DNA of 40,821 bases from Candidatus Margulisiibacteriota bacterium (lineage in GTDB: Bacteria; Margulisbacteria; WOR-1; O2-12-FULL-45-9). Made by a program: the position numbers and the translations under genes. Positions within the stretch are counted from its first letter, which is position 1; each line of letters starts with the position of its first letter. Below the pieces are notes generated by a model, which ran no database searches, had not been told where the DNA came from, and worked only from the letters and a program-made list of their open reading frames with translations. The stretch lies in the NCBI GenBank assembly GCA_034723395.1, contig JAYEOW010000026.1, positions 1-40,821 of the forward strand. The letters run 5' to 3'. Of this stretch, positions 3 through 36,614 are shown one piece after another.

Positions 3-2456
3 TTTGTTGACCCTTACATCGAAAGATCGCTTAAAGATAAACGGAACCTGGTCTATATCCGTTTTGCCAAACACGAACCCCTGATCAAAAATAAGCAGGG
101 CATAAAAATTTATAAGCTGGATGCGCGCAGCGGGTTTGAAACCTTTACCAAAGAGATCCACGAGATCATTGCCCGCGAAGGATTACAGGCCTTTTATGTT
201 TTTGACTGCCTAACCGAGCTTTTAAGCGCCTGGGCGACCGATCTGATGATCGGAAATTTCTTTATGGTTACTTGTCCCTATCTATTCAAGCTTGATACAA
301 TCGCTTATTTTGCCCTTTACCGTGATAACCATTCGTTTAAAACGATCGCGAGGATACGTGAAACAACCCAGTTACTGCTTGATGTCTATGACTTTGAAGA
401 TGAATTTTATGTCCAGCCGTTAAAGGTATGGAAGCGCTACTCGCCGACGATGTTCCTCCCCCATGTTGAAGAGAGAGATAAATTTATCCCAATTACCAGC
501 AGTGCCGATGCCACCAAGTTGTTTTCTTATATTTCCCGGAAGGGGGCGGAGAGTGCCGAGCGCAATCTTGACTACTGGGACCGTCTCTTTATCGGTGCGG
601 AGGAGCTCTCCCGGGAAGTTAACAGGGAAAAAGAAAAAAAAGAGATGCTGGATCGGCTCGATCGGATCATGCTCGGACGCGAAAAGCGGATGCTTTCTTT
701 AATTGACCAAAATTTAACTCTCGAAGACCTTTTGGCGATCAAGGCGCGAACTATCGGCACCGGTTTTATCGGTGGAAAGGCGCTGGGAATGCTGCTGGCG
801 CGAAAAATTCTTTCGCGGGATAAGTCGTTCGATTGGGGAAAAGTCCTTGAGCCGCACGATTCATTTTATATTGGTTCGGACCTCTTCTACACATATATGG
901 TGGAGAATGGCTGGTGGGAGCTTTGGCTCGAGCAGAAGACCAAGAGAGGGTATTTTGCCAAAGCGGCAGAGCTCCGCGAAAAAATATTGAGCGGGAAATT
1001 TACCCACGAGATCCGGGAGCAGTTTCGCCAAATCATCGAATATTTTGGCCAGTCGCCGATCATCGTTCGTTCCTCAAGCCTTTTGGAAGACGCCTTTGGC
1101 AACGCCTTCGCAGGGAAATACGAGAGTGTATTCGACGTTAACCAGGGATCTCCCGAAGAGCGTTACCAGCGTTTTGAAGCTATTATCCGCGAAGTCTATG
1201 CCAGCACGATGAACGAAGATGCGCTCGATTACCGCCTGCAGAGGGGGTTGAGCCAGCAGGACGAACAGATGGCCCTTTTGGTCCAGCGGGTATCGGGAAC
1301 CCACCGTGAAAATAGTTTCTTCCCTTTTATGGCCGGAGTCGGATTTTCTTACAACACCTTTGTCTGGCATAAGGAAATGGATCCCAAAGCGGGGATGCTT
1401 CGCCTGGTATTCGGGTTGGGGACGCGCGCGGTTAACCGGGTCGAGGGGGATTATCCAAGGATTGTGGCACTTGACCAGCCGCTAATGCGCCCGTACGCGG
1501 GGATGGAGAAGACAAAACGCTTTTCCCAGCATGATGTTGATGTTTTAAATATAAAAAATAACCGGTTGGAAACAGTCCCCCTGCAAAAATTATTACAGGA
1601 TGAGCCGGGAATCAACCTTGACCTGATCGGCCAGCGAGACGCGGAGGCAGAAAAGAAGCTGAAGGCGCTAAAGCTTAAAGGCCAGGCCTGGATCTTGACC
1701 TTTGACAAACTTTTGTCCGATACCGGTTTTTCAAAGACGATGCAGAGGATGTTAAAAACTTTGGAAGAGGCCTATCAATATCCGGTCGATATCGAATTTA
1801 CCGTCAATTACGGGCGCGAAGGTAACGCCCAGGTAAATCTGGTGCAGTGTAGGCCTTTACAAGCGAAGGGTGAAGTGGCGCAGGTTATGATCCCCGAAAA
1901 TATCCCGCAGGAAAAACTGGTCTTTTCATCCGCAGGGAATTTTATGGGTGGTAGTGTCTCCCAGTCGATCGGAAGGTTGATCTATGTTGATGCCGAGGCT
2001 TACCGCGATCTTTTAATGGGAAAAAAATTTGAAGTTGCGCGTATAATCGGCCGGATTAATAAGCAGAGTAAGGGAAAAAACACACTTTTGATCGGGCCGG
2101 GGAGGTGGGGAAGCCGTGATGCGACGCTGGGAGTGCCGGTAAACTTTGCGGAGATCAATAATGTTTCGGCATTGATCGAAGTGGATGACCCGGAAGGGGG
2201 CTTTATGCCCGATCTATCCTTTGGTTCTCACTTTTTCCTCGATCTGGTGGAGACCAATATCTTTTACACCGCGCTGTTTATGGATAATGAAAATGTATTT
2301 TTTAGAAAAGATTGGCTTGACGGCTTGACCAACAAACTTTCGGAAATAATCCCCGAAGCTAGGGGCTATGAGTCGGTGATCAGGATCCACGATTTTAGAA
2401 GTGAAATCAAGCTTCTCTCGGATGTGACGAGTCAGAGGGTTCTGTGTGTTAAGTAA
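3..2456 (+). CDS. PEP/pyruvate-binding (PPDK_N ATP-grasp) domain protein, 5'-partial; no PEP-utilising C-terminal barrel
   Basis: The frame is open from base 3 (FVDPYIERSLKDKRNLVYIRFAKH...VFDCLTELLSAWATDL) into the ORF-track protein, so the true start lies before the window. PPDK/PEPS nucleotide-binding motifs VRSSSLLED..FAGKYES, PVDIEF and VQCRPL are present. The C-terminal region has GPGRWGS and FGSHFF. Confidence 0.85.
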   Translation, partial: FVDPYIERSLKDKRNLVYIRFAKHEPLIKNKQGIKIYKLDARSGFETFTKEIHEIIAREGLQAFYVFDCLTELLSAWATDLMIGNFFMVTCPYLFKLDTIAYFALYRDNHSFKTIARIRETTQLLLDVYDFEDEFYVQPLKVWKRYSPTMFLPHVEERDKFIPITSSADATKLFSYISRKGAESAERNLDYWDRLFIGAEELSREVNREKEKKEMLDRLDRIMLGREKRMLSLIDQNLTLEDLLAIKARTIGTGFIGGKALGMLLARKILSRDKSFDWGKVLEPHDSFYIGSDLFYTYMVENGWWELWLEQKTKRGYFAKAAELREKILSGKFTHEIREQFRQIIEYFGQSPIIVRSSSLLEDAFGNAFAGKYESVFDVNQGSPEERYQRFEAIIREVYASTMNEDALDYRLQRGLSQQDEQMALLVQRVSGTHRENSFFPFMAGVGFSYNTFVWHKEMDPKAGMLRLVFGLGTRAVNRVEGDYPRIVALDQPLMRPYAGMEKTKRFSQHDVDVLNIKNNRLETVPLQKLLQDEPGINLDLIGQRDAEAEKKLKALKLKGQAWILTFDKLLSDTGFSKTMQRMLKTLEEAYQYPVDIEFTVNYGREGNAQVNLVQCRPLQAKGEVAQVMIPENIPQEKLVFSSAGNFMGGSVSQSIGRLIYVDAEAYRDLLMGKKFEVARIIGRINKQSKGKNTLLIGPGRWGSRDATLGVPVNFAEINNVSALIEVDDPEGGFMPDLSFGSHFFLDLVETNIFYTALFMDNENVFFRKDWLDGLTNKLSEIIPEARGYESVIRIHDFRSEIKLLSDVTSQRVLCVK

Positions 2457-2459
2457 AAC

Positions 2460-2489
2460 TTGACAACAGCTACAATATTGTATTACACT
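2460..2489 (+). promoter_or_regulatory. Putative sigma70 promoter of the sigma54 activator gene
   Basis: TTGACA (2460-2465), 18 nt, TACACT (2484-2489), just before ATG 2500. Confidence 0.6.
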
Positions 2490-2500
2490 ACAATGTTGTA
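2471..2500. promoter_or_regulatory. Tandem palindromic operators TACAATATTGTA and TACAATGTTGTA
   Basis: Perfect palindrome at 2471-2482 and near-perfect copy at 2489-2500. The same motif occurs twice upstream of glnA. Confidence 0.75.
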
Positions 2501-4008
2501 TGAGCCCGATGCGTGATGTGAAAGTAAAAGTCTTAGTCGAAGTCGGGGAGGCGCTCTCTTCTTCCCTCAATCTCGAAAGATCGCTCAGTTCTATCCTCGA
2601 TGTTCTTTCCGAATCGCTCGAAATGAAGCGCGGTACCATTACCCTGGTTGATCCGATGACAAATGAGTTGCGTATCGAGGTTGCTCAAGGTCTGACCAAG
2701 AAAGAAAAAGAGCGCGGGCATTATAAAATCGGCGAAGGGGTTACTGGTAAAGTAGTTGAATCCGGCGAGCCGATGGTGGTACACGATATCGAAACTGAAC
2801 CGCTCTTTTTGAACCGGACCCGGTCGCGAAAAGAGTTAAGAGAAAGAAAGTTTGCTTTCCTCTGTGTTCCGATCAAAGTCGGGACCAAGATCGTCGGTGC
2901 GTTATCGGTCGATCATCTTTTTAAAGGGAAGATCTCTTACGAAGAAGACATTAAACTTTTGACCATTATTGCTTCGATGGTGGGGCAGGCGGTGTTGATC
3001 CGCGACCTGGCGGAGAAAGAAAAGCAGGTGGTGGTAGCAGAAAATATTAAACTGCGCCAGCAACTTAAAGGGAAGTATAAATTTGGTAATGTTGTTTATA
3101 GTTCTACCGCGATGGAATCGGTCCTGGAAGGGGCTCGTCAGGTAGCAACGACCAATGCGACGGTTTTACTGCGTGGAGAGTCGGGGACAGGTAAGGAATT
3201 AGTTGCGGCGGCGATCCACTATTCGAGCCCGCGCGCGGATAAACCTTTTGTAAGGATTGCCTGTGCCGCATTGCCGGAAAATCTTTTGGAATCCGAGCTT
3301 TTTGGATATGAAAAAGGTGCTTTTACGGGGGCAATGGAGAGAAAGATCGGCCGTTTCGAGATGGCGGGCGGGGGGACGGTTTTTTTGGATGAGATCGGCG
3401 ATCTTTCGCCGTTGACACAGGTTAAATTGCTCCGCGTATTGCAGGAGAGAGAGTTTGAGCGGTTGGGTGGGACAGAGACGATTAAAGCGGATATCAGGAT
3501 CATTTGCGCGACGCATCAGAATTTGGAGAAGATGGTGAAGGAGCGCAAGTTCCGGGAAGATCTTTTTTACCGGATCAATGTTTTTCCGGTTGTTTTACCC
3601 CCTTTACGCGAGCGAAAGGAAGATATCCCGCTCTTGCTGGCGCATTTTACGCATAAGTATAACAAGGAGAGCAGCAAGAGTATTGAGGGGGTCAATCGGG
3701 CGGTGCTTGATATCCTGGTGGCACATGATTGGCCGGGCAATGTTCGCGAGCTCGAAAATGTGATTGAGCATGCGGTCGTTCTCTGCCAAAAAGAGCTGAT
3801 CTCTTCCCGCGATCTCCCCGCAAACCTTTCGCAAGGTGTGGTTGAAGTCAAGGCTAAAGGGACGACGCTCCCTAAAATCGTTGAATCGATCGAGAAGCAA
3901 AAGATAGTCGAAGCCCTGGCAAAACAGAAGACCCAAAAAAAAGCGGCGAAGGCGCTTGGAATTACCGAACGGATGCTAGGGTATAAGATTTCTAAATACG
4001 GGCTCTAA
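2500..4008 (+). CDS. NifA-like sigma54-dependent activator (GAF + AAA+ + Fis-type HTH)
   Basis: N-terminal GAF region, Walker A GESGTGKE, intact GAFTGA loop, [16 protein letters not shown], and C-terminal [19 protein letters not shown] helix-turn-helix. No receiver domain. Confidence 0.92.
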
Positions 4009-4082
4009 TCTGAGTCCGTCTCGATCCCCGTCCCGATATCGTTTTTTCTGAAATTTCTCATAGATAATACTGAAATAAAGGC

Positions 4083-4359
4083 ATGAAAGTGCCAGAATTC
4101 CTATATCACGGAACTGCGGCAATGTCAGTGTGGGCTTCGTACCACCACTGGCAGGCATTGGGAAAATTGCACAAGAAAGAGCCGCAACTGGTTGAGAAGC
4201 AGTTGCGGCCCTTATCTTCGCGATGTTGGTCTCTTGATGGAGCCAAAGGGGGAAGATGATTTTGTTGCGCGCTGTCTTTCCTGGCGAGTGATGAGGGAGA
4301 TTCTTTTAGTTTCTGCTTTAGATTCCCATCTCGGACTGCCCAAGCCGCCGGGAGCTTAG
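4083..4359 (+). pseudogene. Possible frameshifted small gene, unknown function
   Basis: ATG 4083 gives MKVPEFLYHGTAAM...EKQLRP (58-aa ORF, stop 4259). A shifted frame near 4210 continues YLRDVGLLMEPKGEDDFVARC...PPGA to TAG 4359. Confidence 0.35.
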
Positions 4360-4507
4360 TTGTCCCGACCTCTGCCCCGGATCTTTACTTGACCTTGAGG
4401 CGATTCGCTTTTCCATCCAACGCCGGTGCGGTTAGGTAGACCTTGTTGTTTTTAAACGTATTCTTCTTAGCCTTGGGAGCTACTTTAATGTCTAATTCCT
4501 TATCTAT
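4356..4507 (-). pseudogene. DUF167 (YggU/UPF0235) remnant with internal deletion and frameshift
   Basis: The minus strand translates to KELDIKVAPKAKKNTFKNNKVYLTAPALDGKANR, matching the intact copy at 17207-17419 (KTIEIKVVPNAKKNQFKNGKVYLTAPAVEGKANR). It stops early at 4385-4387. The tail QVKIRG..RDN is in another frame, and no ATG start is present. Confidence 0.8.
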
Positions 4508-4554
4508 TAATGGAGCTATGCCACAATTTCGTAGTTTTCCTTCGTAACCCCTCG

Positions 4555-4570
4555 TGGTAATAAAATTGCT
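4555..4570 (+). promoter_or_regulatory. Sigma54 -24/-12 promoter of the sORF-barrel-amtB-glnK operon
   Basis: TGGTAATAAAATTGCT, with GG (4556-57)-N10-GC (4568-69). 15/16 identical to the glnA promoter. Confidence 0.85.
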
Positions 4571-4613
4571 ATTACTAAGGTGTAACTAATTTTTATTAAA
4601 GGGGGGAAAGTAA

Positions 4614-4775
4614 ATGAGAACCATACATGAATTGCTGGATACGATTATTCCGTTCGTAGTTGTTCCGTACGAAGGCGTTGGAAAAGGAGTTCCGGAAAAG
4701 GCCGGGGGGCTGACGTATCTTCATGAATTGGAGCTGGAAGAGATTGATCTTGAGGAGGTGGTTCCCGATGAGTGA
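4614..4775 (+). CDS. Small acidic hypothetical protein (53 aa), below the ORF-track cutoff
   Basis: G-rich SD (AAAGGGGGGAAAG) before ATG 4614 gives MRTIHELLDTIIPFVVVPYEGVGKGVPEKAGGLTYLHELELEEIDLEEVVPDE*. It is the first ORF after the sigma54 promoter. Confidence 0.65.
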   Translation: MRTIHELLDTIIPFVVVPYEGVGKGVPEKAGGLTYLHELELEEIDLEEVVPDE

Positions 4776-4819
4776 TAAGCGCCAAAGGTGTCGAAATAAA
4801 CCGGGAAAGGATATTTAAA

Positions 4820-5497
4820 ATGAAAAAAATTATGTTTGCTTTTTTAATTAGTTTGATTTTGTTGACCAGGATGACTTTTGCCCTGGCGGACCTGAACGCG
4901 ACCTATGTTTCAAAATATATTTGGAGAGGATTTGATCTGAATGCCGCTCAGCCGGCAATCCAGCCCGGACTAACGATCGGTTTGGGGGATAGCGGAACCT
5001 CGTTGGGACTTTGGGGTTCCTATAATATAGGAGCCGGTACCCGACAGCTGACCGAATTGGACGCAACTCTTGATTATTCTTTATCCGTATCGGGAGTTGA
5101 TTATTCAATCGGCTACACTTATTATACTTTTCCAAATTTAACTGGAGCGGCAGCTAAAAGTGGAGAATTTTATGCTGGCGCTACCCTTGGGGAAGTACTG
5201 TTCAGCCCTGGCCTGACCATCTATTACGATCATGATCAAGGAGATGGTGTGTATGCCAGCCTGTCTGGAGGGTATGACTTGGCCATGATCTCTTCGAGTT
5301 TGGCAGTTGGCTATAACGCTGGGCAATGGGGAGCAAAGTCTGGCAGCATTGATATCGCTTTGGGGCTGTCATCAGAAATATCGGTTGGAGCGGCAACCGT
5401 TACCCCTTCAGTGAATTATGTGCTTGTCTCGGACACGAGCGTTAATCCTAATTCCAGTGAATTCTGGTTTGGGATTGATATTGCAGGAAGTATATAG
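4820..5497 (+). CDS. Outer-membrane beta-barrel protein, TIGR02001/TorF-like putative porin
   Basis: Signal peptide MKKIMFAFLISLILL, S.YIWRG and PAIQPG motifs, ELD..L.Y, alternating aromatic strands, located upstream of amtB-glnK. Start moved to ATG 4820 (SD GAAAGGA). Confidence 0.75.
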   Translation: MKKIMFAFLISLILLTRMTFALADLNATYVSKYIWRGFDLNAAQPAIQPGLTIGLGDSGTSLGLWGSYNIGAGTRQLTELDATLDYSLSVSGVDYSIGYTYYTFPNLTGAAAKSGEFYAGATLGEVLFSPGLTIYYDHDQGDGVYASLSGGYDLAMISSSLAVGYNAGQWGAKSGSIDIALGLSSEISVGAATVTPSVNYVLVSDTSVNPNSSEFWFGIDIAGSI

Positions 5498-5528
5498 AGG
5501 GTTACAATTTTATGCAGGAGGTGTAAAT

Positions 5529-6869
5529 ATGTTTGGGAAAATAAGCAGGATAGGGATTATCGTCTTTCTTTTTTTAATGCTTGGCTTGGGGACCGCATCT
5601 TTTGCTGAGGCAACTGCAGAATCAAATGCCCTGGCTATTAATACGGTTTGGACCTTGCTGGCAGCCTTTCTGGTTTTCTTTATGCAAGCGGGATTTGCCA
5701 TGGTTGAGACCGGCTTTACCCGGGCCAAGAATGCGGTCAATATTATGATGAAAAATTTACTGGATTTTTCAATTGGTTCGATTGCTTTCTGGCTGGTCGG
5801 TTTCGGGATCATGTTTGGTGCAAGTTTTATGGGATTTTTTGGGACTAGTGGTTTTTTCCTATCATCGGCTAATCCGGGAACCGCCGAAGGTTTGTGGCAG
5901 TATGCTTTCTGGATCTTCCAGGCGGTTTTCGCAGCTACGGCGGCTACCATTGTCTCTGGTGCTATGGCTGAACGAACGAAGTTTATCGGTTATCTGGTTT
6001 ATTCGGTTTTCATCACTGCTTTGATCTATCCGGTTGTTGGCCATTGGATCTGGGGGAGTGGCTGGTTAGCCAATCTAGGCATGCTTGATTTTGCCGGCTC
6101 TACTGTTGTGCATAGTGTTGGTGGTTGGGCTGCTTTGGCTGGCGCCATCGTTCTCGGACCACGCCTCGGAAAATATAATAAAGATGGTTCTTCCAATGCT
6201 ATTGCTGGTCATAGTATCCCGTTGGCAGCGCTTGGTGTGTTCATTTTGTGGTTTGGCTGGTTTGGATTTAACCCCGGATCAACAACTGCAGGGACCGATC
6301 TATCCATAGCCTTTATTGCCGTGAATACTAACCTGGCTGCAGCGGCAGGAGCTATCCTGGCGATGATTACGGTCTGGATAAAATATGGAAAGCCGGATGT
6401 CAGTATGACTCTCAATGGCGCCCTGGCCGGACTAGTTGCGGTTACGGCTCCGTGTGCTTTTGTCAGTCCGCTGAGTTCAATCATCATCGGTGCAATAGCT
6501 GGAATACTGGTTGTTTTGAGCGTAGAATTCATTGATAAGGTTTTACGCGTGGATGACCCGGTCGGTGCTATTTCGGTGCATGGTGTTTGTGGTGCTTTTG
6601 GGACATTAAGTCTTGGTCTCTTTGCCGAAAAGGCCTTTGGCGGAGTTAATGGTTTGTTTTTTGGCGGGGGATTTGCTCAATTCTGGGCTCAACTAGCGGG
6701 TGTCCTGGCTGTATTTGGATGGGTTTTTGCTACAGCGTTAATTCTTTTCATGGCCACCAAATACATAGTTGGTTTACGCGTAAGTAGAGAGGAAGAGCTG
6801 CGCGGTCTGGACATCGGCGAGCACGGCATGGAAGCTTATTCAGGCTTTCAGATTTTTACGACTCAGTAA
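5529..6869 (+). CDS. amtB: Ammonium transporter
   Basis: [69 protein letters not shown] before ATG 5529. Confidence 0.97.
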
Positions 6870-6883
6870 AGGAGGTATTAAAC

Positions 6884-7225
6884 ATGAAACTTATAATAGC
6901 TATGATCCAGCCCGAAAAACTGCCGGATGTTAAAAAGACGTTATTTGATGCCGAAGTGCATAAGATGACTGTAACCAATGTGGTCGGCTGTGGTCAACAG
7001 AAGGGATTTACCGAGACTTACCGAGGGGTAGTTCATGAAGTTAATCTTTTAAAAAAGGTTCGCCTTGATATCGCAGTCAATGATGAGTATGTTAAGCAAA
7101 CGGTGGACGCGATTATGAAAGGGGCGCGTACCGGCAAGATCGGCGATGGGAAGATCTTTGTGCTTCCCCTTGAAGAATGTTACCGGATCCGTACCGGTGA
7201 AACGGATGGGGATGCGATTGGATAA
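6884..7225 (+). CDS. glnK: P-II nitrogen regulatory protein (amt-linked, GlnK type)
   Basis: G.GQQKG, YRG T-loop, K58, [27 protein letters not shown]; directly follows amtB. Confidence 0.93.
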
Positions 7226-7243
7226 CAACCTCATTTCCTTTTG

Positions 7244-7274
7244 TCCCCCTCTCCATTGAAAATGGAGAGGGGGA
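7244..7274. repeat. Perfect 14-bp hairpin palindromic element; may terminate or stabilise the amtB-glnK transcript
   Basis: TCCCCCTCTCCATT-GAA-AATGGAGAGGGGGA. No clear U-tract on the + strand. Confidence 0.75.
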
Positions 7275-7298
7275 AACCCGAGCGGCGCGAGGCAATAT

Positions 7299-7340
7299 TA
7301 CAATAATGTAGCTATGAGTATCAAAAACTACAATAATGTA
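7299..7340. promoter_or_regulatory. Two identical TACAATAATGTA boxes (putative upstream activator sites) before glnA
   Basis: Copies at 7299-7310 and 7329-7340, 30 bp apart, upstream of the sigma54 promoter. Confidence 0.8.
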
Positions 7341-7370
7341 TGTTAATGGCTTGATTTTAAGGGAATTTTC

Positions 7371-7386
7371 TGGTAATAAGATTGCT
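7371..7386 (+). promoter_or_regulatory. Sigma54 -24/-12 promoter of glnA
   Basis: TGGTAATAAGATTGCT, with GG (7372-73)-N10-GC (7384-85). Confidence 0.85.
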
Positions 7387-7413
7387 TATAATAAGTTAAA
7401 GGAGAGTGCAAAC

Positions 7414-8748
7414 ATGCCAACAAAAGAAGAGATATTAAAACAGGTTCAGGATAATGATGTAGAGTTCATAAGATTGTGGTTCACGGACCTAAATGGGATA
7501 TTAAAGAGTTTTTCGATCGGGAAAGAAGAACTAAAACATGCTTTGGAGGATGGGATGGGGTTTGATGGTTCCTCGATCACCGGTTTCCAGGATATTGAAG
7601 AGTCAGACATGATCGCGATGCCCGATCCAAATACCTTTGCCATCTTGCCGTGGAGGCCAGAGGAAAAGGCGGTTGCCAGGATGATCTGCGATGTGCTTCA
7701 ACCGGCTGCCGGAGGGCATAAGCCTTACGAAGGAGATCCAAGATACGTTTTAAAAAGACAGTTGGCTAAGATGGAAAAATTAGGTTTTGATCATTTTTAT
7801 GTTGGCCCGGAACTTGAGTTTTTCTATTTTAAAGATAACAAGGGGACTGAGACTTTGGACGAGGGGGGGTATTTCGATCTTACTCCGTTGGATATGGCCT
7901 CAAATTTAAGACGTGATACTATTTTTGCGCTAAGAAAATTGGGGATCCACGTTGAATATTCCCACCACGAGGTTGCACCTTCACAGCATGAGATAGATAT
8001 GCGCTATGACGATGGTTTAAAGATGGCGGATGACATGTTTACCTACCGGTTGACAGTAAAAGAGATCGCTTCGGCCAACGGAGTTTATGCTACTTTCATG
8101 CCAAAACCGATCTTCGGCCAGAACGGCTCCGGGATGCACGTCCACCAATCGCTTTTTAAGGGGAAGTCTAATGCCTTTTATGATGCCAAAGATAAATACA
8201 ACCTTTCCGAAACTGGAAAATCGTATATTGCCGGCATTCTAAAGCATGCGCCGGAAATGATCTCGATCCTTGCCCCGTGGGTAAATTCCTACAAGCGGTT
8301 AGTCCCGGGTTATGAAGCTCCGGTATATATTGCTTGGTCGAGAAGGAATCGCTCCGCCTTGATCCGTGTTCCGATGTACCAGCCAGGTAAAGAAGCGGCT
8401 ACCAGGATGGAGCTCCGCTGTCCAGATCCTTCGGGCAATCCCTACCTGCAGTTGGCTGTAATGCTCTCTGCCGGGTTAAAAGGGATCGAAGAGGGTTATA
8501 AACTGGCCGATCCGATGGAACTTAACCTCTATCATTTAACCGATGAAGAGAGAGCTGAGCGTGGGATCAAATCCCTCCCCGCTAGCCTTGGCGAAGCGGT
8601 CCATATAACCGGCAAGAGCGAATTAGTTAGAGAAACGCTCGGCGACCACTGTTTTGAGCGCTTCATCGAACTAAAGAAAAAAGAGTGGGATGAGTTCCGC
8701 ATCCAGGTAACGGAGTACGAAATCAAAAAGTACTTGCCGATACTGTAA
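7414..8748 (+). CDS. glnA: Glutamine synthetase type I (GSI-alpha-like, 444 aa)
   Basis: FDGSSI.GF, GPELEFF, HHEVAPSQHEI, TFMPKP, NGSGMHVHQS, YKRLVPGYEAP, RNRSALIRVP. SD AAGGAG before ATG 7414. Confidence 0.97.
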   Translation: MPTKEEILKQVQDNDVEFIRLWFTDLNGILKSFSIGKEELKHALEDGMGFDGSSITGFQDIEESDMIAMPDPNTFAILPWRPEEKAVARMICDVLQPAAGGHKPYEGDPRYVLKRQLAKMEKLGFDHFYVGPELEFFYFKDNKGTETLDEGGYFDLTPLDMASNLRRDTIFALRKLGIHVEYSHHEVAPSQHEIDMRYDDGLKMADDMFTYRLTVKEIASANGVYATFMPKPIFGQNGSGMHVHQSLFKGKSNAFYDAKDKYNLSETGKSYIAGILKHAPEMISILAPWVNSYKRLVPGYEAPVYIAWSRRNRSALIRVPMYQPGKEAATRMELRCPDPSGNPYLQLAVMLSAGLKGIEEGYKLADPMELNLYHLTDEERAERGIKSLPASLGEAVHITGKSELVRETLGDHCFERFIELKKKEWDEFRIQVTEYEIKKYLPIL

Positions 8749-8755
8749 ATTTAAT

Positions 8756-8810
8756 GGGGCGGGACCTTTTCGGCTCGACACCTTTGAGGCCTGCCCCTTC
8801 AAAGGTGTCG
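8756..8810 (+). promoter_or_regulatory. RNA structure sequestering the gltB ribosome-binding site, with an alternative or pseudoknot pairing
   Basis: CGACACCTTTGA (8776-8787) pairs with TCAAAGGTGTCG (8799-8810). CCTGCCCC (8790-8797) is complementary to GGGGCGGG (8756-8763) with one G-U. Confidence 0.5.
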
Positions 8811-8812
8811 TT

Positions 8813-13154
<4,342 letters not shown>

Positions 13155-13162
<8 letters not shown>

Positions 13163-14486
13163 TCCAAAGGGATTTTTATTACACAAAAGAAAAGATGTGC
13201 AGTACCGTCCGGTTTGCGAAAGGGTGAAGGATTATAAAGGGGTGGTAAAAATCCGTCCCGACCGCCAATTACGCGACCAGGCTTCCCGCTGCATGGATTG
13301 TGGCACGCCTTTTTGTAACTGGGGTTGTCCGCTAGGCAATTATATTCCAGAGTGGAATGACTATATTTATACCGGCCAGTGGAAAAAGGCTTTTGAATTG
13401 CTTGATGCAACCAATAATCTTCCAGAAATAACGGGCCGCGTGTGTCCGGCTCCTTGTGAATATGCTTGTGTACTTGGCATTAATGATGATCCAGTAACCA
13501 TTCGAGAAAATGAGCTGGCAATCATTGAACACGCTTTTAAAAAGGGGTGGATTAAACCGAATCCTCCAGAAAAGAGGACAAGAAAGAAAGTTGCGGTAAT
13601 CGGTTCTGGACCGGCGGGCCTTTCTTGTGCGGTTGAGCTGAATAAAAATGGCCATTCGGTTACAGTTTATGAAAAAGACGCCAAGATCGGCGGGATTTTA
13701 CGTTACGGGATCCCTGATTTCAAACTTGAGAAGAAGATTTTGGACCGCCGGATCGCGATCTGGGAAAAAGAGGGAATTAAGGTTAAAACTAATACCGAAG
13801 TTAAAAAAGATCCGGCTGGATTTGACGCAGTCTGCTGGGCGGGTGGGGCAAGGACGCCGCGCGATCTGGAAATTGAGGGAAGAAATCTTTCTGGTATCCA
13901 CTTTGCGATGGATTATCTGTCGCAGGCAAATAAAAAGGTTTCCGGTGAAAAAATTAGCGAAAAAGGGATCAATACCAAAGGGAAGAAAGTCGTTGTCGTC
14001 GGTGGCGGTGATACTGGATCGGATTGTGTCGGAACGGCAAATCGACAGGGGGCAAAATGTGTGGTTCAGATCGAACTTTTACCACAGCCACCGGAGTGCC
14101 GTGATGGTTCGTGTCCTTGGCCAAAGTATCCGCTTCTGTTGAAGACGACTTCTAGCCATAAAGAGGGGGCGGAAAGGCATTGGTCGATCCTCACCAAAAA
14201 GTTCGTGGGCGAAAAAGGCAAAGTTAAAAATCTTTCTTGTATAAAAGTTGAGTTCGAAGGACGGAAAATGGAAGAGATTCCTGGCTCAGAGTTTGAGATC
14301 GAGGCTGATCTGGTTATTTTGGCTGTCGGATTCTTAAAGCCGGAACTGCCTGAGACATTATCGAAAAAAAATGTGTTTTGCGCGGGGGATTCACAGCGCG
14401 GACCATCTCTGGCAGTATGGGCGCTTTATGAAGGGCGCGAGACCGCATGCGAAATAGACAACTATTTAAGGGGAGAAGAAAAATGA
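13155..14486 (+). CDS. gltD: Glutamate synthase small subunit
   Basis: RCMDCGTPFC..GCP, GRVCPAPCE, IGSGPAG, GGGDTGSDC; overlaps the gltB stop. Confidence 0.96.
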
Positions 14487-15577
14487 ATGCGATTTTAGCG
14501 CTTGAGGATGGGACTATATTCGAAGGAGCTTCCTTCGGCGTCGCCGGAGAGCAGACCGGAGAGGTCGTTTTTAATACTTCCATGACCGGTTACCAGGAGA
14601 TACTCACCGATCCTTCCTACAAAGGCCAAATTGTTACCATGACTTATCCCCTGATCGGCAACTACGGGATCAATCCCGAAGATTTTGAATCGGAAAAACC
14701 GCATCTTTCGGGTTTTGTCGTCCGCGAAGCGAGCCGGATCGTCAGCAACTGGCGCTCGAGCATGAGCCTGGACGATTTTCTGAAAAAACATAAGATCATC
14801 GGGATCGAAGGGATCGATACCCGCGCGCTGACCCTCCACATCCGCTCTGCCGGAGCGATGAAGGGGATCCTCTCCACCGAAGATCTCGACCCAAAGAGCC
14901 TGATCAAGAAAGCAAAGGGATCAAAAGGCCTGGTCGGAGTTGACCTGGTCAAAAAAGTTACCTGTAAAGAGATATACGAATGGAATAAGAAGGGGAAATA
15001 TAAAGTTGTCCTCCTCGATTGCGGAGCTAAATATAATATTATGCGCGATCTGGCTAAGCGTGATTGCCATGTCGTGGTCGTTCCCTCCAATACTACGGCC
15101 AAAAAGATCCTTTCTATGAAACCCGACGGAGTTATGCTTAGTAACGGCCCCGGCGATCCGGCGGCGGTGACATATGTTATCGAAACTGTCCGCGAACTTA
15201 TCGGTAAAGTTCCAATGTTCGGTATCTGTCTCGGCCATCAGATGCTCGGCCTGGCCCTCGGCGGCAAAACATTTAAGCTAAAATTCGGCCATCGCGGCGC
15301 CAACCACCCGGTAATGGACCTTAAAACCAAAAAAGTTGAGATCACTTCGCAAAACCACGGGTTCTGTGTCGATGTCGATTCGCTCGATCCGAAAAAAGTT
15401 GAGCTTACCCATCTGAATTTAAATGATAAGACAGCGGAAGGCCTGCGGCATAAAAAATATCCGGTTTTTTCGGTCCAATACCATCCCGAGAGCAGCGCCG
15501 GCCCGCATGACAGCAAATATTTATTCGACAGGTTTATGGCCCTCCTTTGCGGGGCTTCGGAGGGTAAGAATGCCTAA
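14483..15577 (+). CDS. carA: Carbamoyl-phosphate synthase small subunit
   Basis: [38 protein letters not shown] overlap with gltD places the start at 14483. Confidence 0.97.
15540..15564. repeat. Short palindromic element in the carA 3' end
   Basis: CCCTCC (15540-45) ... GCTTC-GGAGGG (15559-64). It is translated as the carA tail [12 protein letters not shown], and its right arm sits at SD distance from the carB ATG. Confidence 0.45.
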
Positions 15578-17204
15578 AAGAAAAGATATAAAAAGCATTT
15601 TGATCATAGGCTCGGGGCCGATCGTGATCGGCCAGGCGTGCGAGTTCGACTATTCCGGAGTTCAGGCATGCAAAGCGTTAAAATCGGAAGGCTATAAGGT
15701 GATCCTGGCCAACAGCAACCCGGCGACAATTATGACCGATCCCGAAGTGGCCGACCGGACCTATATTGAGCCGATCGATCCTCTTTTTATCGAAAAAATA
15801 ATCGAAAAAGAGAAGCCGGATGCAGTTCTTCCAACTCTTGGAGGCCAGACCGCGCTCAATTGCGCGATCAAGCTCGAAGAAAAGGGTGTATTTAAGAAAC
15901 ACGGAGTTGAAATGATCGCTGCGAATGCGGAAGTGATTAAAAAAGCGGAAGACCGCGAGCTTTTTAAGGAGGCGATGAAAAAGATCGGGCTCGATTTACC
16001 TGAAAGCGGTTTGGCTTATACCTATAAAGAGGCGGTCCAGGTTGCGGAAGAGATCGGATTTCCGCTGATCATCCGCCCGAGTTTTACCCTCGGTGGAAGA
16101 GGGGGTGGAGTCGCTTATAACATCGATGAGTTCAAGGTGATCGCCGGCCGCGGGTTGGAAGCGAGCATGAATTCGGAGATCCTGGTCGAGGAATCTTTGA
16201 TCGGGTGGAAAGAGTATGAGATGGAGGTTATGCGCGACCTCAATGATAACGTAGTGATCATCTGTTCGATCGAAAACTTCGATCCGATGGGGATCCATAC
16301 CGGCGATTCGATCACGGTGGCCCCGGCGCAGACGTTGACCGATAAAGAATATCAGATCATGCGTGATGCATCGATCGCGGTGATCCGCGAGATCGGAGTT
16401 GAAACCGGCGGGTCCAATATCCAGTTCGCGATAAATCCGAAAAACGGGCGGATGGTGGTTATCGAGATGAATCCACGCGTTTCGCGCTCCTCCGCTTTAG
16501 CTTCGAAAGCGACCGGTTTCCCGGTCGCCAAGATGGCGGCTAAGTTAGCGGTCGGTTATACCTTAGATGAGATCCCAAATGATATTACCCAGAAAACCCC
16601 GGCCTGTTTTGAGCCGACGATCGATTATTGTGTGGTCAAGATCCCCCGTTTTACTTTCGAAAAGTTCCGCGGGGCAGATTCGGTCCTCACCACTTCGATG
16701 AAATCGGTGGGGGAGGCGATGTCGATCGGCCGGACCTTTAAAGAATCGCTGCAGAAAGGCCTGCGTTCACTCGAAGTGGATGTTTTTGGCCTGGAGGGAT
16801 TGAAAAAAGAGCCCTCGCAGGAAGAGATAGAGCATTATCTCCGTTATCCGGGGAACAATCGGATCTTTTATATTAAACATGCGCTGCAGAACGGAATAGG
16901 CATCGACCAGATATTTCAAATGACCAAGATCGACCGCTGGTTTTTGGATAATATGAAAGAGATCGTCGATTTTGAGACCGGGTTAAAGGGTTACAAAGGG
17001 AAAGATATCCCACAGAAGCTTTTGCTCGAAGCAAAGGTCATGGGATTTTCGGATGTTCAGTTGGCCAGGTTATGGGGGATCTCCGAAGAGAAGGTTTTTG
17101 ATCTTCGCAAAAAGAGCGGGATCATCCCCGACTATAAATTAGTCGATACCTGCGCGGCCGAGTTTGAGGCTTACACCCCTTATTATTATTCGACCTATTC
17201 GTAA
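15570..17204 (+). CDS. carB: Carbamoyl-phosphate synthase large subunit, N-terminal half only (544 aa)
   Basis: [30 protein letters not shown], one ATP-grasp domain ([19 protein letters not shown]) and the oligomerisation domain. It ends at [19 protein letters not shown]. Confidence 0.93.
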
Positions 17205-17206
17205 TT

Positions 17207-17419
17207 CTAGTTTCGAATCCGGACCACTTTATTCCTCGATTTTAATCCGCGGATAATTTTGATCTGGCTCTTTTCAACGTCATAATATTCGGCGAGGAAG
17301 ATAGTCAAAGCCCGGTTCGCTTTCCCTTCCACCGCCGGTGCGGTCAGATAGACCTTTCCGTTCTTGAATTGATTTTTTTTGGCGTTGGGTACGACTTTTA
17401 TTTCAATGGTTTTGGGCAT
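17207..17419 (-). CDS. DUF167 (YggU/UPF0235) family protein, 70 aa
   Basis: IKVVPNAKKN, KVYLTAPAVEGKANRAL, IIRGLKSRNK. The start is taken at ATG 17419. Confidence 0.85.
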   Translation of the reverse strand: MPKTIEIKVVPNAKKNQFKNGKVYLTAPAVEGKANRALTIFLAEYYDVEKSQIKIIRGLKSRNKVVRIRN

Positions 17420-17426
17420 GATCGAT

Positions 17427-17890
17427 TTAAGTTTTTTGTGCAATAAAGAATTCGTATCCAAAATAGTCAGAATTTTTCTTGAAGCCGTCGGTTTCCTTCT
17501 GGGCAGCATCGAGAACCGCAGCAGCAACTGCATTATTCTTATACTTCGGCCTTAGCTCATCGATCCTCTTCTGCATTGGGTCATAGTAATTGTTCATCCA
17601 GGAGCTAACAGGAAGAGTGAAGTGGCCGAGTACCTTATAATTGTTATTCTGGCGGCCCAGATAATGTCGAAGCTCTCGGGTTCGAACGCCATGGTGTTCA
17701 TGTCCTGATTGAGGAATTTAATATGCTCTAATAATTTGCCTTTTTTAGTATCGGTTTTTAGCTTATCGAGAAAGGGCTGATGATTATCCAGGGCGATGAC
17801 GGTTCCTTTAGAAAGCCTGGCTAGTTCCAGTGTCTGCACTCCCGGCCCAGCGCGCGGCAGGACTCCGTAGATCTCGAAGAAATAGGTCAT
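17427..17890 (-). pseudogene. Class I SAM-dependent methyltransferase pseudogene (two internal deletions, frameshift)
   Basis: Frame 1 reads MTYFFEIYGVLPRAGPG|VQTLELAR...ESFDIIWA and lacks the LDxGCGxG motif I. Frame 2, from about 17651, reads NYKVLGHFTLPVSSWMNNYYDPMQKR...DYFGYEFFIAQKT*. Confidence 0.75.
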
Positions 17891-33216: not shown

Positions 33217-34165
33217 AAAGAAGATAAAGTATATAAAAAAAGTAAAGCGGCCTGTGGTCCGTCCCTGTCCCTGTGCCGTCGGGCACATTTCTTGTAATTA
33301 TGTCAATATCAGCCATATTCTCGGCTGCCCATATAACTGCAGCTACTGTTTTCTCCACACCTTCTATGGTAAGGACGAGATCGTTGTTTATGATAATGAA
33401 GAAGATATCCTAAATCAGCTTTCGGCATATATGAAATCGGCCAAGGAGCCTTTAAGGATCGGGACTGGGCAATATTCTGATAGTTTAGCATTGGATAAAA
33501 AGGTCCCGTTTGCCCAGAAGCTAATAGAATTCTTTGCCGGTCAAGATAAACATCTACTGGAACTCAAGACTAAAAGTGCCGAAGTTGATCATCTTCTTAA
33601 TCAAAATCTAAACCATAACTGCAAGTCGATCTTCGCCTGGTCAGTCAATCCGGAGAAGATAGTTAAAAGCGATGAGGAGGGATCAGTCCCGCTGGCTGAA
33701 AGAATTAACGCAGCCAAGCGATGTTCAGCTGCTGGCTATCCGGTCGCTTTCCACTTTGATCCGATCATTCACTATTCTGGATGGGAGGAAGATTATAAAG
33801 GAGTGATAGATCTTATATTTTCAAATATCGATCCAGAAAATATTGCCTGGATAAGTTTAGGAGCGCTTCGCTCACCTCCGGAGCTAAAAGATATTATTAA
33901 GAAACGTTTTTTCCATTCTTGTATCACCTGGGAGGAAATGGAGCTGGGAGAGGATGGGAAGATCAGGTATTTTAAGCCGATCAGGATAGAGATATTTAAA
34001 CGGATGCATGAAATTATCCGGTCGTACTCACGAGATGTATATGTATATTTATGCATGGAAAGGATTGAGGTTTGGAATGAGTCTGGTTTAAATAATATGG
34101 AGAAGCATCCTTATGCCGGTTTTTTTAAGTTTTTTAGGAAGAGGTGTTATAATAGAAAGGCATGA
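33200..34165 (+). CDS. Spore photoproduct lyase-like radical SAM protein
   Basis: GCPYNCSYC CxxxCxxC motif, RIGTG..SDSLA, ELKTKS, FHFDPII, GKIRY, YLCME. Confidence 0.85.
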   Translation: MSTQSEKKIKYIKKVKRPVVRPCPCAVGHISCNYVNISHILGCPYNCSYCFLHTFYGKDEIVVYDNEEDILNQLSAYMKSAKEPLRIGTGQYSDSLALDKKVPFAQKLIEFFAGQDKHLLELKTKSAEVDHLLNQNLNHNCKSIFAWSVNPEKIVKSDEEGSVPLAERINAAKRCSAAGYPVAFHFDPIIHYSGWEEDYKGVIDLIFSNIDPENIAWISLGALRSPPELKDIIKKRFFHSCITWEEMELGEDGKIRYFKPIRIEIFKRMHEIIRSYSRDVYVYLCMERIEVWNESGLNNMEKHPYAGFFKFFRKRCYNRKA

Positions 34166-34845
34166 GCAAGGTCCTTATAATTGAAGATGAAAAAGATATC
34201 GTTGAAGCGCTTGAGTATAATCTCAAGAAGGAAAATTATTCTGTCTCAAAAGCTAACGATGGAAAGCGGGGGTTAAAAGTCGCCCGCGAAAAATTACCCG
34301 ATCTAATTATCCTCGACCTAATGCTCCCGGTGATCGAAGGCCTTGAAGTATGTAAGATCCTTAAGAAAGAGATGTCCACAAGGAACATTCCGATTATCAT
34401 GCTTACTGCTAAAAGCGCCGAATTGGACAAAGTGTTGGGATTGGAACTTGGGGCGGACGATTATATGACCAAACCATTTAGCATACGCGAGCTTATCGCC
34501 CGGGTCAAAACTATCCTTAAAAGATATGGATCAAAAGAATTGTCCAAAAATCCGGTCTTGAGGTTTTCGGATCTGGAAATCGATATTGAAAAACACGAAA
34601 TAAAAGCTGCCGGGAAGCCGATCGAACTTACCGCTAAAGAATTTACTCTGCTCCAATATCTCGCCGAAAATAAAGATAAAGCTATCGGCCGTGATAAACT
34701 GCTCGATCAGGTATGGGGGATAGAAGTGGCGATCGAGACTCGCACGGTGGATGTCCACGTTACCCGCTTGCGGGAGAAACTAGGGAAAAAAGCCGGCAAA
34801 CATATCCAAACCCTGCGGGGGGTCGGCTATAAATTTAAAGAATAA
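34162..34845 (+). CDS. phoB: OmpR/PhoB-family response regulator
   Basis: IIEDE, ILDLMLP, MLTAK, GADDY..KPF, RTVDVH..RLR; adjacent to phoR and pst genes. Confidence 0.85.
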   Translation: MSKVLIIEDEKDIVEALEYNLKKENYSVSKANDGKRGLKVAREKLPDLIILDLMLPVIEGLEVCKILKKEMSTRNIPIIMLTAKSAELDKVLGLELGADDYMTKPFSIRELIARVKTILKRYGSKELSKNPVLRFSDLEIDIEKHEIKAAGKPIELTAKEFTLLQYLAENKDKAIGRDKLLDQVWGIEVAIETRTVDVHVTRLREKLGKKAGKHIQTLRGVGYKFKE

Positions 34846-36614
34846 TGTTTAAGACATTAAAATCCGTGCTTTTTATTACATTTATCGGCCTGGTCATTCT
34901 GGTTCTTTTGATTTTTGCTATTTTAGCGACCCCGCGTATCCGCGCCGCGGCGATCAACCAGATCAGCAGTGAATTGTTTAAACAAATAGCGCTAGAAGAG
35001 GGCAAATATACAGATATTTTGGAGAAACGATTAAATAGCTCTGTGTTACAAAAAAATGTAATTACAACAGGGAAGTTATCTGGCGGCAGAGTAACGATTA
35101 TCGCAAAAGATGGGAAAGTTTTGGCAGATTCTGCCACCCCTTTTGCTAAAATAAGTGAATTAGAAAATCATGCCGATCGCCCTGAGGTTGTTCAGGCAGA
35201 GAGAGAGGGGAGGGGGAGGTCGATCCGTTTTAGCGCGACGCTGGGGAAGAACTTAATTTATGTTGCTGTGCCAATCAAAGATTTAGGTTATCTTCGGCTT
35301 TCTATTCCGGCCACTTATGCAACTGATCTGGTAATCAATATCCAAAAATCGATGGCGGTCGCGTTCGCAGCCGCGCTAATAACCGCAATCATTTTAAGCA
35401 TGATGTTTTCACGGTGGTTCGCAGACCCGATCATCCGGCTTTCAGAAATATCAAAGAAAATTGCTGATGGGAAGTATCCGCAGACGATTGTTAGAAAATC
35501 AGGGTTTGAGATCGGTAAGCTTGAAGAATCGATCGAGCAGATGAGCTATCGTTTGGCAGGCGCTTTCCGCGATCTAAAAATGGAACAGGGGCAGATCATT
35601 ACGATCCTCTCCAGTATGTCGGAGGGGGTGCTGGCGGTGGGAAGCGATGGGAAGTTAATAATCGCGAACCCCGTTATTGAAAAGATGTTTGAAGTGATCG
35701 AACCCGAAATAGTCGGCAAGAGGGTTAGGGAGGGGATACGCAATAATGAGATAGCGGACCTGATCGAAGAGACATTGAAAACGAGCCGGGCGGTGAACAG
35801 GGAGATAAATTTGATTTCTCCTGAAGAGAGGTCGGTTGTGGCGCACGCCAGCCCGATCCGAACCGATGAAGGGGATCTGTTGGGAGTTGTTTGCGTGCTT
35901 TATGATGTTACAGAAATGAGAAGGCTTGAACAATACCGATCTGAATTTGTGGCAAATGTTTCGCATGAACTAAAAACCCCGTTGACCTCAATCCGTAATT
36001 ACGTTGAGACTTTAATAAACGGGGGGATTGAGGATAAAAAGAATAATATGCAGTTTTTACAAAAAATCGACAAGCATGCGATCAACCTTTCCGCACTAAT
36101 TGATGACATCCTTGAAATATCCCGGCTCGAATCCAAGAGGGGATTGGGGCCTTTTGTGAAGATAGATATCGGGAAGATAGTTAACCGAACAGTAGAGACG
36201 GTTTCGGAGAAAGCGAAGAAGAAAAGGGTTGAACTGGTTGTGAACTGTAAAATTAATGGGTGTTTTATCTCAGGGATAGAAGACCATGTTTACCGGGCAG
36301 TCCTTAACTTGCTGGATAATGCGATAAATTATACGGATGCCGGCGGGAAAGTAGAGGTCTCTTGCCGCAGGGATGGGGAAACGATTAAGATCGTAGTTTT
36401 AGATACCGGGATTGGAATCCCTAAAGAGCATCAATCACGTATTTTCGAGAGATTCTATCGGATAGATAAAGTCAGATCGCGAGATGAAGGGGGGACCGGA
36501 CTAGGGCTCTCCATTGTAAAGCATGTGGTTAATATCCATAATGGGACCATCTTGGTAGAAAGCGATATAAATATGGGATCAAAATTTACGCTTACTTTTT
36601 CCCTGCCCGCATAA
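34845..36614 (+). CDS. phoR: PhoR-like sensor histidine kinase (TM, HAMP, PAS, HisKA, HATPase)
   Basis: ENHADRPEV, FVANVSHELKTPLTSI, NLLDNAINY, IFERFYRIDK.RSR..GGTGLGLSI. Confidence 0.88.
   Translation: MFKTLKSVLFITFIGLVILVLLIFAILATPRIRAAAINQISSELFKQIALEEGKYTDILEKRLNSSVLQKNVITTGKLSGGRVTIIAKDGKVLADSATPFAKISELENHADRPEVVQAEREGRGRSIRFSATLGKNLIYVAVPIKDLGYLRLSIPATYATDLVINIQKSMAVAFAAALITAIILSMMFSRWFADPIIRLSEISKKIADGKYPQTIVRKSGFEIGKLEESIEQMSYRLAGAFRDLKMEQGQIITILSSMSEGVLAVGSDGKLIIANPVIEKMFEVIEPEIVGKRVREGIRNNEIADLIEETLKTSRAVNREINLISPEERSVVAHASPIRTDEGDLLGVVCVLYDVTEMRRLEQYRSEFVANVSHELKTPLTSIRNYVETLINGGIEDKKNNMQFLQKIDKHAINLSALIDDILEISRLESKRGLGPFVKIDIGKIVNRTVETVSEKAKKKRVELVVNCKINGCFISGIEDHVYRAVLNLLDNAINYTDAGGKVEVSCRRDGETIKIVVLDTGIGIPKEHQSRIFERFYRIDKVRSRDEGGTGLGLSIVKHVVNIHNGTILVESDINMGSKFTLTFSLPA

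Follow-up and report, generated by a model that had tools for sequence, protein, structure and literature searches.

A nitrogen-assimilation cluster of Candidatus Margulisiibacteriota with a NifA-like GAF activator as the probable driver of glnA and amtB and a PPDK_N-family protein tied to NrpR and GDH

The window analysed here is the entire contig JAYEOW010000026.1 (C26; 40.8 kb) of a bacterial genome (G000; 1.68 Mb in 55 contigs, 97% complete), and its proteins have their closest homologues in entries labelled Candidatus Margulisiibacteriota. The window begins with a gene of the PPDK_N family, followed by the gene of a NifA-like sigma-54 activator with a GAF domain and by two sigma-54-driven units that contain amtB and glnA. 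In the explanation that I consider the best, and probably the right one, the NifA-like activator drives glnA and amtB, an NrpR protein encoded just upstream acts at gdhA, and the PPDK_N protein is an effector enzyme and not the sensor. The gene content and the two sigma-54 units had been recognized in an earlier sequence-only reading, and both were confirmed by Pfam and NCBIfam matches and by the -24/-12 elements at 4555 and 7371. The elements on which the argument depends are as follows.

3..2456, plus strand: PPDK_N-family protein (PF01326, E 4.5e-55; truncated at the contig start, with 817 codons left of about 855)
2460..2489, plus strand: sigma-70-type promoter of the activator (TTGACA, 18-nt spacer, TACACT)
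2471-2482 and 2489-2500: two TACA-N4-TGTA boxes in the activator promoter
2500..4008, plus strand: NifA-like sigma-54 activator, GAF-AAA+-Fis-type helix-turn-helix (HTH), with GAF, Sigma54_activat and HTH_8 domains
4522..4533: CACAATTTCGTA, a degenerate box that precedes the -24 TGG of the amtB unit by 33 nt
4555..4570, plus strand: sigma-54 promoter (-24/-12) of the unit acidic open reading frame (ORF)-porin-amtB-PII, matching TGGYAATAAGATTGCT
5418..6869, plus strand: ammonium transporter AmtB (PF00909, E 2.6e-136; TIGR00836, 471.9 bits)
6884..7225, plus strand: PII of the GlnK type (PF00543, E 5.5e-29; P-II fold family)
7299..7340: two perfect TACAATAATGTA boxes, 30 bp apart, upstream of glnA
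7371..7386, plus strand: sigma-54 promoter of glnA, matching TGGYAATAAGATTGCT
7414..8748, plus strand: glnA, glutamine synthetase type I of 444 aa (TIGR00653, 545.9 bits; true start 7414)

The activator is a member of the sigma-54 activator family, with a PF00158 domain (E 2.6e-72), an HTH_8 domain (E 3.5e-08), a GAFTGA loop and Walker A and B motifs (FLDEIG). Over its full length the best match in the PDB is NifA (9qq6_C, E 2.9e-108), and its GAF domain is closest to that of Aquifex Nlh1 (4g3k, E 4.7e-28). It reaches 503.3 bits on TIGR01817, the NifA equivalog model, which is below the cut-off of 528.85. The N-terminus is a GAF domain and not a receiver, and the NtrC model TIGR01818 aligns with residues 192-476 only. 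The window has no ntrBC, glnD, glnE or nif genes, as had been noticed from the sequence alone, and the picture is the same for the genome. A profile search with PF08335 (GlnD/GlnE) gave 0 matches, a search for nifH with PF00142 yielded only partial P-loop matches (the best covers profile positions 6-44), and PF00543 found a single PII, that of the window. Two other full activators are encoded in the genome, both with the order receiver-AAA+-HTH. One of them follows rpoN, beside a degenerate paralogue and pilus genes, and the other adjoins a seven-transmembrane histidine kinase and an Opp (oligopeptide) transporter; by sequence and neighbours, neither looks like NtrBC, and no NtrB-like partner was found in the genome.

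The -24/-12 elements at 4555 and 7371 are almost identical and fit a consensus, TGGYAATAAGATTGCT, that recurs at about 10 intergenic sites of the genome. In all, the 1.68 Mb contain 12 copies of the 12-bp palindrome TACA-N4-TGTA. Five of them are inside the window, and four of these five form two pairs, at 2471/2489 in the activator promoter and at 7299/7329 before glnA. The glnA boxes lie 72 and 42 nt upstream of the -24 TGG, and the offsets are identical in the related locus L009. At the activator, TTGACA-18-TACACT is the best sigma-70 match in 2300-9000 (10/12) and lies between the PPDK_N stop and the activator start. The box at 2471 fills its spacer, the box at 2489 covers the start site and the start codon, and the position of the start codon at 2500 leaves almost no leader. 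Read from the sequence, this arrangement is an autoregulatory, nearly leaderless design, and the same boxed promoter is repeated in L008, L009 and L037.

Are the boxes conserved? I compared 23 distinct loci of the class, namely the window, L008, L009, L037 and 19 further stretches (the duplicate L099 was dropped). In 21 of the 23 loci, at least one box stands no more than 40 nt ahead of the activator start. The loci hold 36 matches to the sigma-54 pattern, and 23 of these have a box 25-110 nt upstream, where about 2.7% would be expected from the box density. The offsets cluster at 32-34, 42-45, 72-78 and 92-102 nt, and those of 32-34 nt recur in 7 promoters. Outside the class, a box lies in the spacer between the activator and a divergent porin-amtB-PII operon in 4 of 13 GAF-activator loci (L019, L026, L054 and L056), all from Planctomycetota, and the activators of these loci are 45-46% identical to that of the window. 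That a NifA-like protein takes the role of NtrC had been proposed from the sequence alone. This is now well supported by comparison, since there is no GlnD or GlnE and no NtrBC-like pair, and since the box is conserved on the activator's own promoter and before nitrogen sigma-54 promoters across the class and in Planctomycetota. Thus, the best candidate driver of the glnA and amtB sigma-54 promoters is most likely the NifA-like GAF activator, not NtrC.

The same reading had also assumed one operator shared by all of these promoters. This holds for glnA and for the activator promoter, which have perfect boxes, but the amtB-unit promoter has no TACA-N4-TGTA box at up to two mismatches and carries only the degenerate box CACAATTTCGTA at 4522, which has the same sequence and the same offset in L009. 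In G115, a genome with the same acidic ORF-porin-amtB cassette, the corresponding site reads CACAAAATTGTA. This is a proper box and speaks for CACAATTTCGTA being a weakened one. Since CACAATTTCGTA also resembles a different motif upstream of other sigma-54 promoters of the genome, the activator of the amtB-unit promoter is less certain. A receiver-type, NtrC-like activator might drive one or both promoters, with the boxes serving autoregulation only, and the two full activators of this type do reach 428 and 450.6 bits on TIGR01818. However, both fall short of the 558.6 bits that the NtrC model requires, and no gln gene or soluble kinase of the NtrB type adjoins either of them. Moreover, where the GAF activator is conserved, so are the perfect boxes at their fixed distances from the glnA promoter. 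With the proper box of G115 in addition, I regard this alternative as very unlikely. The other motif, which is GTCGA-N4-TCGAC-like and stands upstream of the sigma-54 promoters at C3:26111, C40:17040 and C7:69596 of G000, is presumably the site of one receiver-type activator.

The window activator has the same GAF-AAA+-HTH three-domain build as the NifA/AnfA/VnfA family. The experimentally defined site consensus of AnfA is TAC-N6-GTA, dyads of the AnfA/VnfA type read TAC-N6-GTA or GTAC-N6-GTAC, the NifA site is TGT-N10-ACA, and AnfA and VnfA carry a conserved cysteine motif in the GAF domain (PMC7294313). The TACA-N4-TGTA boxes fit the AnfA consensus and not the NifA site. In contrast to AnfA and VnfA, the window activator is without the cysteine motifs; its GAF region holds a single Cys, and neither this domain nor the linker carries a cysteine cluster. 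It also differs from NifA in that its genome is without nif genes and that its putative targets are glnA, amtB and its own gene. In Leptospira interrogans, the GAF activator EbpA, described as FhlA-like with two GAF domains, drives the sigma-54-dependent amtB and is needed at low nitrogen (PMC12655853). Leptospira EbpA-RpoN and Nlh1/Nlh2 (AQ_218) of Aquifex aeolicus are likewise GAF activators at sigma-54 nitrogen promoters in non-diazotrophs; EbpA is unlike the window activator in its FhlA-like build with two GAF domains. No link of the EbpA or the Aquifex NifA-like systems to NrpR or the PPDK_N family appears in the parts of the literature covered. An Aquifex NifA-like protein reportedly bound upstream of glnBA, in work by Studholme and colleagues from 2000; a search of the open-access PMC and bioRxiv literature found nothing on glnBA regulation in Aquifex. 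A GAF activator of nitrogen-assimilation genes is thus not new in kind, and the one here is a further case. In enterobacteria, NtrBC acts through enhancers upstream of the sigma-54 promoters of glnA (glnAp2) and glnK-amtB, and NtrC also represses sigma-70 promoters. The logic is the same in the window, with enhancer-like sites before glnA and amtB and also on the activator's own sigma-70 promoter. However, there is no receiver, NtrB, GlnD or GlnE here, a GAF domain would do the sensing, and the sites are different and closer to the promoter.

Is the PPDK_N protein the sensor of this activator? In the sequence-only reading, the dikinase-like protein was the signal transducer that replaces GlnD/NtrB; it would sense nitrogen and control the NifA-like activator or PII. 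Some observations are in line with this. The two genes are adjacent in three arrangements, which are PPDK_N-activator, activator-PPDK_N (Planctomycetota) and divergent (another family of Margulisbacteria), and the PPDK_N protein has an ATP-grasp domain that looks intact and an invariant His. In a profiling sample of 146 genomes of the phylum, PPDK_N was found in 40, NrpR in 33, a GAF-activator homologue in 89 and PF08335 in 20. The activator is present in all 40 PPDK_N-positive genomes, and PF08335 and PPDK_N are nearly exclusive, as PF08335 occurs in 1 of the 40 (a weak match) versus 19 of the 106 genomes without PPDK_N. However, this contrast follows class boundaries, so that it is confounded by kinship and is weak evidence. 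A GAF-activator homologue was also found in 49 of the 106 PPDK_N-negative genomes. In 18 of these 49, the GAF region is at least 69% identical, and 9 of the 18 come from genomes that are at least 91% complete, two of them single contigs. These PPDK_N-negative genomes with an activator orthologue keep the boxes and the sigma-54 promoters intact, which suggests that the activator works without PPDK_N. In addition, PPDK_N is equally often linked to NrpR, gdhA or gltBD without a nearby activator. In family f7, which is without NrpR, the activator and PPDK_N are divergent, and a single box overlaps PPDK_N's own TGnTATAAT promoter in all four divergent-activator loci examined (L115-L118); in L121, a fifth locus of the family, the box reads as degenerate. 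Thus, PPDK_N appears to be a target of the regulation. By sequence comparison, it belongs to the nitrogen regulon as one of the regulated genes, is tied most closely to NrpR and GDH, and is probably not the sensor of the activator. The proposed role in place of GlnD/NtrB was not supported, given the 18 genomes that keep the activator and the coupling of PPDK_N to nrpR described below, and I judge it to be quite unlikely.

The gene upstream of PPDK_N is found on another contig. Contig C7 shares 8 nt with the start of C26, and its end holds the first 38 codons of the PPDK_N gene. Directly upstream of PPDK_N lies nrpR, which encodes HTH_12 and NRD1_2 domains (PF01995, E 1.6e-81; PF08461, E 7.5e-18) and whose final codons run over the start codon of PPDK_N, with an overlap of 14 nt. 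On C7, gdhA and a second glnA lie divergently to nrpR. NrpR is the nitrogen repressor of methanogens, released by 2-oxoglutarate (PMC11957540). The upstream gene shares the HTH_12 and NRD1_2 domains of methanogen NrpR, whereas the homologue here is bacterial and in an operon with the PPDK_N gene. A palindrome, TACGGCAA-N4-TTGCCGTA, is unique in the genome and fills the spacer of a TTGACA/TATAAT promoter pointing to gdhA. Besides G000, 21 genomes have nrpR directly ahead of PPDK_N in the same orientation. Of 24 regions upstream of nrpR, 19 contain the palindrome, and in 21 of 22 the divergent gene is gdhA. The arrangement gdhA<>nrpR-PPDK_N is a conserved triad. This candidate operator differs from the methanogen-type NrpR operator, GGAA-N6-TTCC. 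The latter has 59 sites in the genome, against about 25 estimated for random sequence of this size, and one of them is inside the acidic ORF (around 4680); for want of conservation data it was dropped as a candidate. The second glutamine synthetase (L090 9656-11341, on C7 of G000, upstream of gdhA) is an ORF of 561 aa with, as listed, about 130 residues before Gln-synt_N, and no box or sigma-54 promoter was seen nearby.

How far does the link to nitrogen genes extend? More than 8000 database proteins, as a lower bound, match the PPDK_N family; they are typically 837-870 aa long and about 60% identical across phyla, and no description of the family was found in the open-access PMC and bioRxiv literature. 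Among contigs from one genome per species, at least 563 stretches encode a PPDK_N relative. I counted the neighbours within five genes for the best 80 of these at least 563 loci, which come from Margulisiibacteriota, Planctomycetota, Omnitrophota, Syntrophales, Spirochaetota and others. The commonest neighbour was gdhA (29 loci), followed by the GAF activator (15), PII (14), carB (14), NrpR (13), gltB (13), gltD (13), amtB (12), glnA (9), carA (9), pyrG (7) and purF (6). The link of the PPDK_N family to nitrogen assimilation, which the sequence-only reading had taken as one point on which it could fail, is real and conserved.

Might the protein work with NrpR and/or GDH, using ATP to modify or assist them and so to set the activity of NrpR or the flux through GDH? 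Such a partnership would explain the translational coupling of nrpR and PPDK_N, whose stop and start codons overlap. The 21 further genomes with nrpR directly upstream, the frequency of gdhA and the conserved triad fit it, and so does the phylum sample, in which nearly all genomes with NrpR also have PPDK_N (both in 29, NrpR only in 4, which are 77-94% complete). However, 11 PPDK_N-positive genomes of the phylum are without NrpR, and in Omnitrophota the PPDK_N gene follows gltBD instead. I consider a partnership of this kind unlikely.

The fold of the PPDK_N protein was assessed on a predicted model of a full-length relative (pLDDT 85.9, pTM 0.80). The match of the ATP-grasp domain to PF01326 spans nearly the whole profile (positions 4-326 of 328), and its modelled fold is similar to rifampin phosphotransferase (RPH; 5hv3, Z 25.8, rmsd 2.9, 300 residues aligned) and PpsA (2ols, Z 24.1). 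Judging from the sequence, the domain looks intact and of the PEP-synthase type. The N-domain (model residues 4-216) is similar to the CII domain of KaiC in the model (8zn5_G, Z 19.9, rmsd 2.8, 193 residues aligned), and its nearest named Atlas clusters are PF06745, with a score of 0.82-0.84 that serves as a lead only. It appears to share the RecA-like core fold of the KaiC/RecA-superfamily ATPases and not their Walker A P-loop. The motif GxxxxGK[ST] is absent, and the corresponding stretch, at the presumed P-loop position, is an invariant GDN-V..Q.D. The tail of 185 residues has the invariant His (H743 in window numbering). Modelled alone (pLDDT 92.7), it shows weak similarity, with Z 5.5-6.0, to the swivel domains of RPH, PPDK and pyruvate kinase (Z 5.9 to RPH 758-865 and Z 5.8 to the PPDK carrier domain), tied with unrelated folds. 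For the N-domain and the tail, a sequence-profile search of the PDB gave nothing below E 0.2, and Pfam gave no match, including none to the PEP-utilisers mobile domain. No PEP/pyruvate TIM barrel was found by Pfam, and the protein ends after the tail; the NCBIfam PEP synthase models score at most 58 bits against cut-offs of 598-1063. The protein has the ATP-grasp domain in common with rifampin phosphotransferase, PEP synthase and PPDK, and its tail resembles phosphohistidine carrier domains only weakly; in contrast to these enzymes, it adds a P-loop-less KaiC-like domain and its context is nitrogen assimilation. On these models, it is probably an ATP-using enzyme that relays phosphate through a histidine. 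A sister family in Planctomycetota (G180, G182, G227, G237 and others; E 1e-113 to 1e-144, frames of 770-1320 aa) matches the ATP-grasp domain and the tail only, from about profile position 255 on, so that other N-terminal domains replace the KaiC-like one. About 10 of 151 genomes in the Planctomycetota sample have a full-length PPDK_N.

The preferred reading can be put as a mechanism. The NifA-like activator would bind the TACA-N4-TGTA boxes (TAC-N6-GTA class) as a dimer. Its GAF domain would report nitrogen limitation, the likely signals being 2-oxoglutarate and/or the single PII as in NifA proteins, and the activator would then switch on the sigma-54 promoter of glnA and, through the weaker box, that of the amtB unit. 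By sitting on its own near-leaderless sigma-70 promoter it may keep its own level in check, in the manner of NtrC at glnAp1 and glnL. The site that NrpR, as a second regulator, probably binds is TACGGCAA-N4-TTGCCGTA, within the spacer of the sigma-70 promoter of gdhA. The PPDK_N protein would be translated together with NrpR and may serve the regulon as an effector enzyme that uses ATP, probably with a phosphorylated histidine, and is tied above all to GDH and glutamate formation.

In this mechanism, DNA binding, the signals, the direction of the regulation and the enzyme chemistry are deduced; the gene content, the promoters, the boxes and their conservation, the co-occurrence pattern and the folds are what was observed. 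Several points weigh against it. The amtB-unit box is degenerate, with 2 of 8 half-site letters off, and a receiver-type activator could serve this promoter. Of the sigma-54 pattern matches, 13 of 36 are without a box, and some of these 13 are within coding DNA. The boxes are centred about 53-63 nt from the start site, which is unusually close for an enhancer. With a genome that is 97% complete, the absences fall short of proof. The pairing of the palindrome with NrpR is based on adjacency, and the repression of gdhA by a repressor that releases at high 2-oxoglutarate is not the textbook direction. Finally, the likeness of the tail to a phosphohistidine domain is weak, with no Z of 8 or more.

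The textbook cases of nitrogen control are GlnD-PII-NtrBC in enterics, NtcA in cyanobacteria and NrpR in methanogens, and in candidate phyla it is almost unstudied. The locus offers a compact wiring diagram for a sister lineage of Cyanobacteria, with a putative one-component GAF activator and its 12-bp site, an archaeal-type repressor that probably acts at gdhA and a PII that reads as non-uridylylatable. Through it, a family of enzyme-like proteins with a very wide distribution comes to stand at the centre of ammonium assimilation. The most interesting item is this PPDK_N family and its operon with a bacterial NrpR beside gdhA; the substrate of the family, once found, would fill a real gap. 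As a tentative possibility that I hold with little confidence, PPDK_N might be a new kind of enzyme in nitrogen signalling. As a phosphotransferase driven by ATP and working through a histidine relay, it would dock GDH, NrpR or PII with its dead KaiC-like domain and set flux or repressor activity, and the nrpR-PPDK_N operon next to gdhA in Margulisbacteria would be the minimal working unit. If this is true, such signalling would operate in many anaerobic phyla without GlnD, GlnE and NtrBC.

The window is best explained as the downstream two thirds of a nitrogen supercluster with the order gdhA <> nrpR-PPDK_N / GAF activator / acidic ORF-porin-amtB-PII / glnA-gltBD-carAB. The remaining features of this part are listed below.

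4400..4510, minus strand: DUF167 (YggU) gene remnant, found by tblastn
4614..4775, plus strand: 53-aa acidic ORF with a strong ribosome-binding site ahead
4820..5497, plus strand: putative outer-membrane porin of the Gcw_chp/TorF type (PF09694, E 5.4e-10; TIGR02001)
7244..7274, plus strand: perfect 14-nt inverted repeat after PII, found by a repeat search
8813..14486, plus strand: gltB and gltD (large and small subunits of glutamate synthase, by domain matches), followed by carA and a half-size carB

The PII had been called atypical from the sequence alone, and it is: the sole PII of the genome has Gln38 and, at position 51, His and not Tyr. Tyr51 is the uridylylation site of PII proteins of the proteobacterial type. 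In an alignment of its subfamily, position 51 is H, N, F, V or E, and position 38 is Gln or Glu. The window PII is 58-77% identical to PIIs from other phyla (Omnitrophota, Planctomycetota and others) and only 36-39% identical to those of the nearest relatives, L009 and L037. In a separate comparison with L009, L037, L061 and L085, the PII was 73-77% identical to Omnitrophota PIIs, and amtB stood at 56-67% versus 36-39% in the closest relatives. The DUF167 remnant in the spacer between the activator and the amtB unit is 67.6% identical over 37 aa to an intact copy at 17207-17533 (E 6e-15), has no start codon and resembles a scar left by a rearrangement. Taken with the identities of the PII, it suggests that the acidic ORF-porin-amtB-PII cassette replaced an older amtB-glnK unit. 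The start of amtB is uncertain, as the listed ORF runs into the porin gene.

The acidic ORF has no Pfam or NCBIfam family match. A homologue with 62% identity is found at the same position in G115, and one further relative, the 73-aa protein P0124, was found among 5.8 billion proteins. The ORF had been counted among the parts of the system in the sequence-only reading, and as a general component it was dropped, being present in 2 of 31 genomes of the order and matched by one protein of the 5.8 billion. It is a lineage-restricted small gene, conserved but narrow.

The inverted repeat at 7244-7274 is possibly a terminator, and it was not among the terminator-like sites of a consensus terminator scan. 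Hairpins of the form CCCTCTCC...GGAGAGGG recur in intergenic DNA, at 7244-7274 of the window, at 13410-13490 of L090 and at about 610-640 of the relative L009; they are REP-like or terminator elements. Another hairpin, with a 14-bp stem, lies at 8776-8810 between the glnA stop and the gltB start and may be a terminator or attenuator that separates the expression of glnA from that of gltBD. An Rfam scan of 2300-9000 for riboswitches and leaders gave only a chance miRNA match (E 0.28). The carB gene at 15423-17204 covers the N-terminal half only (593 aa; domains D1-D3). Since a minus-strand gene directly follows it, this may be a split carB. The genes after the sigma-54 promoters at C7:69596 and C53:7892 begin like ORF6N-type proteins, by a reading of the sequence. 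A sigma-54-like 16-mer, TGGCACACTTTTTGCT, is identical at C16:103, C27:102, C39:102, C10:2483, C18:16760, C24:34668 and C24:34861. Three of these copies are about 100 nt away from a contig end, which points to a repeat in several copies at which the assembly breaks. At the far end of the window, 34162-40821 holds a PhoB/PhoR-like two-component pair, an unnamed ORF of 445 aa and pstS/C/A-like genes, and looks like an ordinary phosphate regulon.

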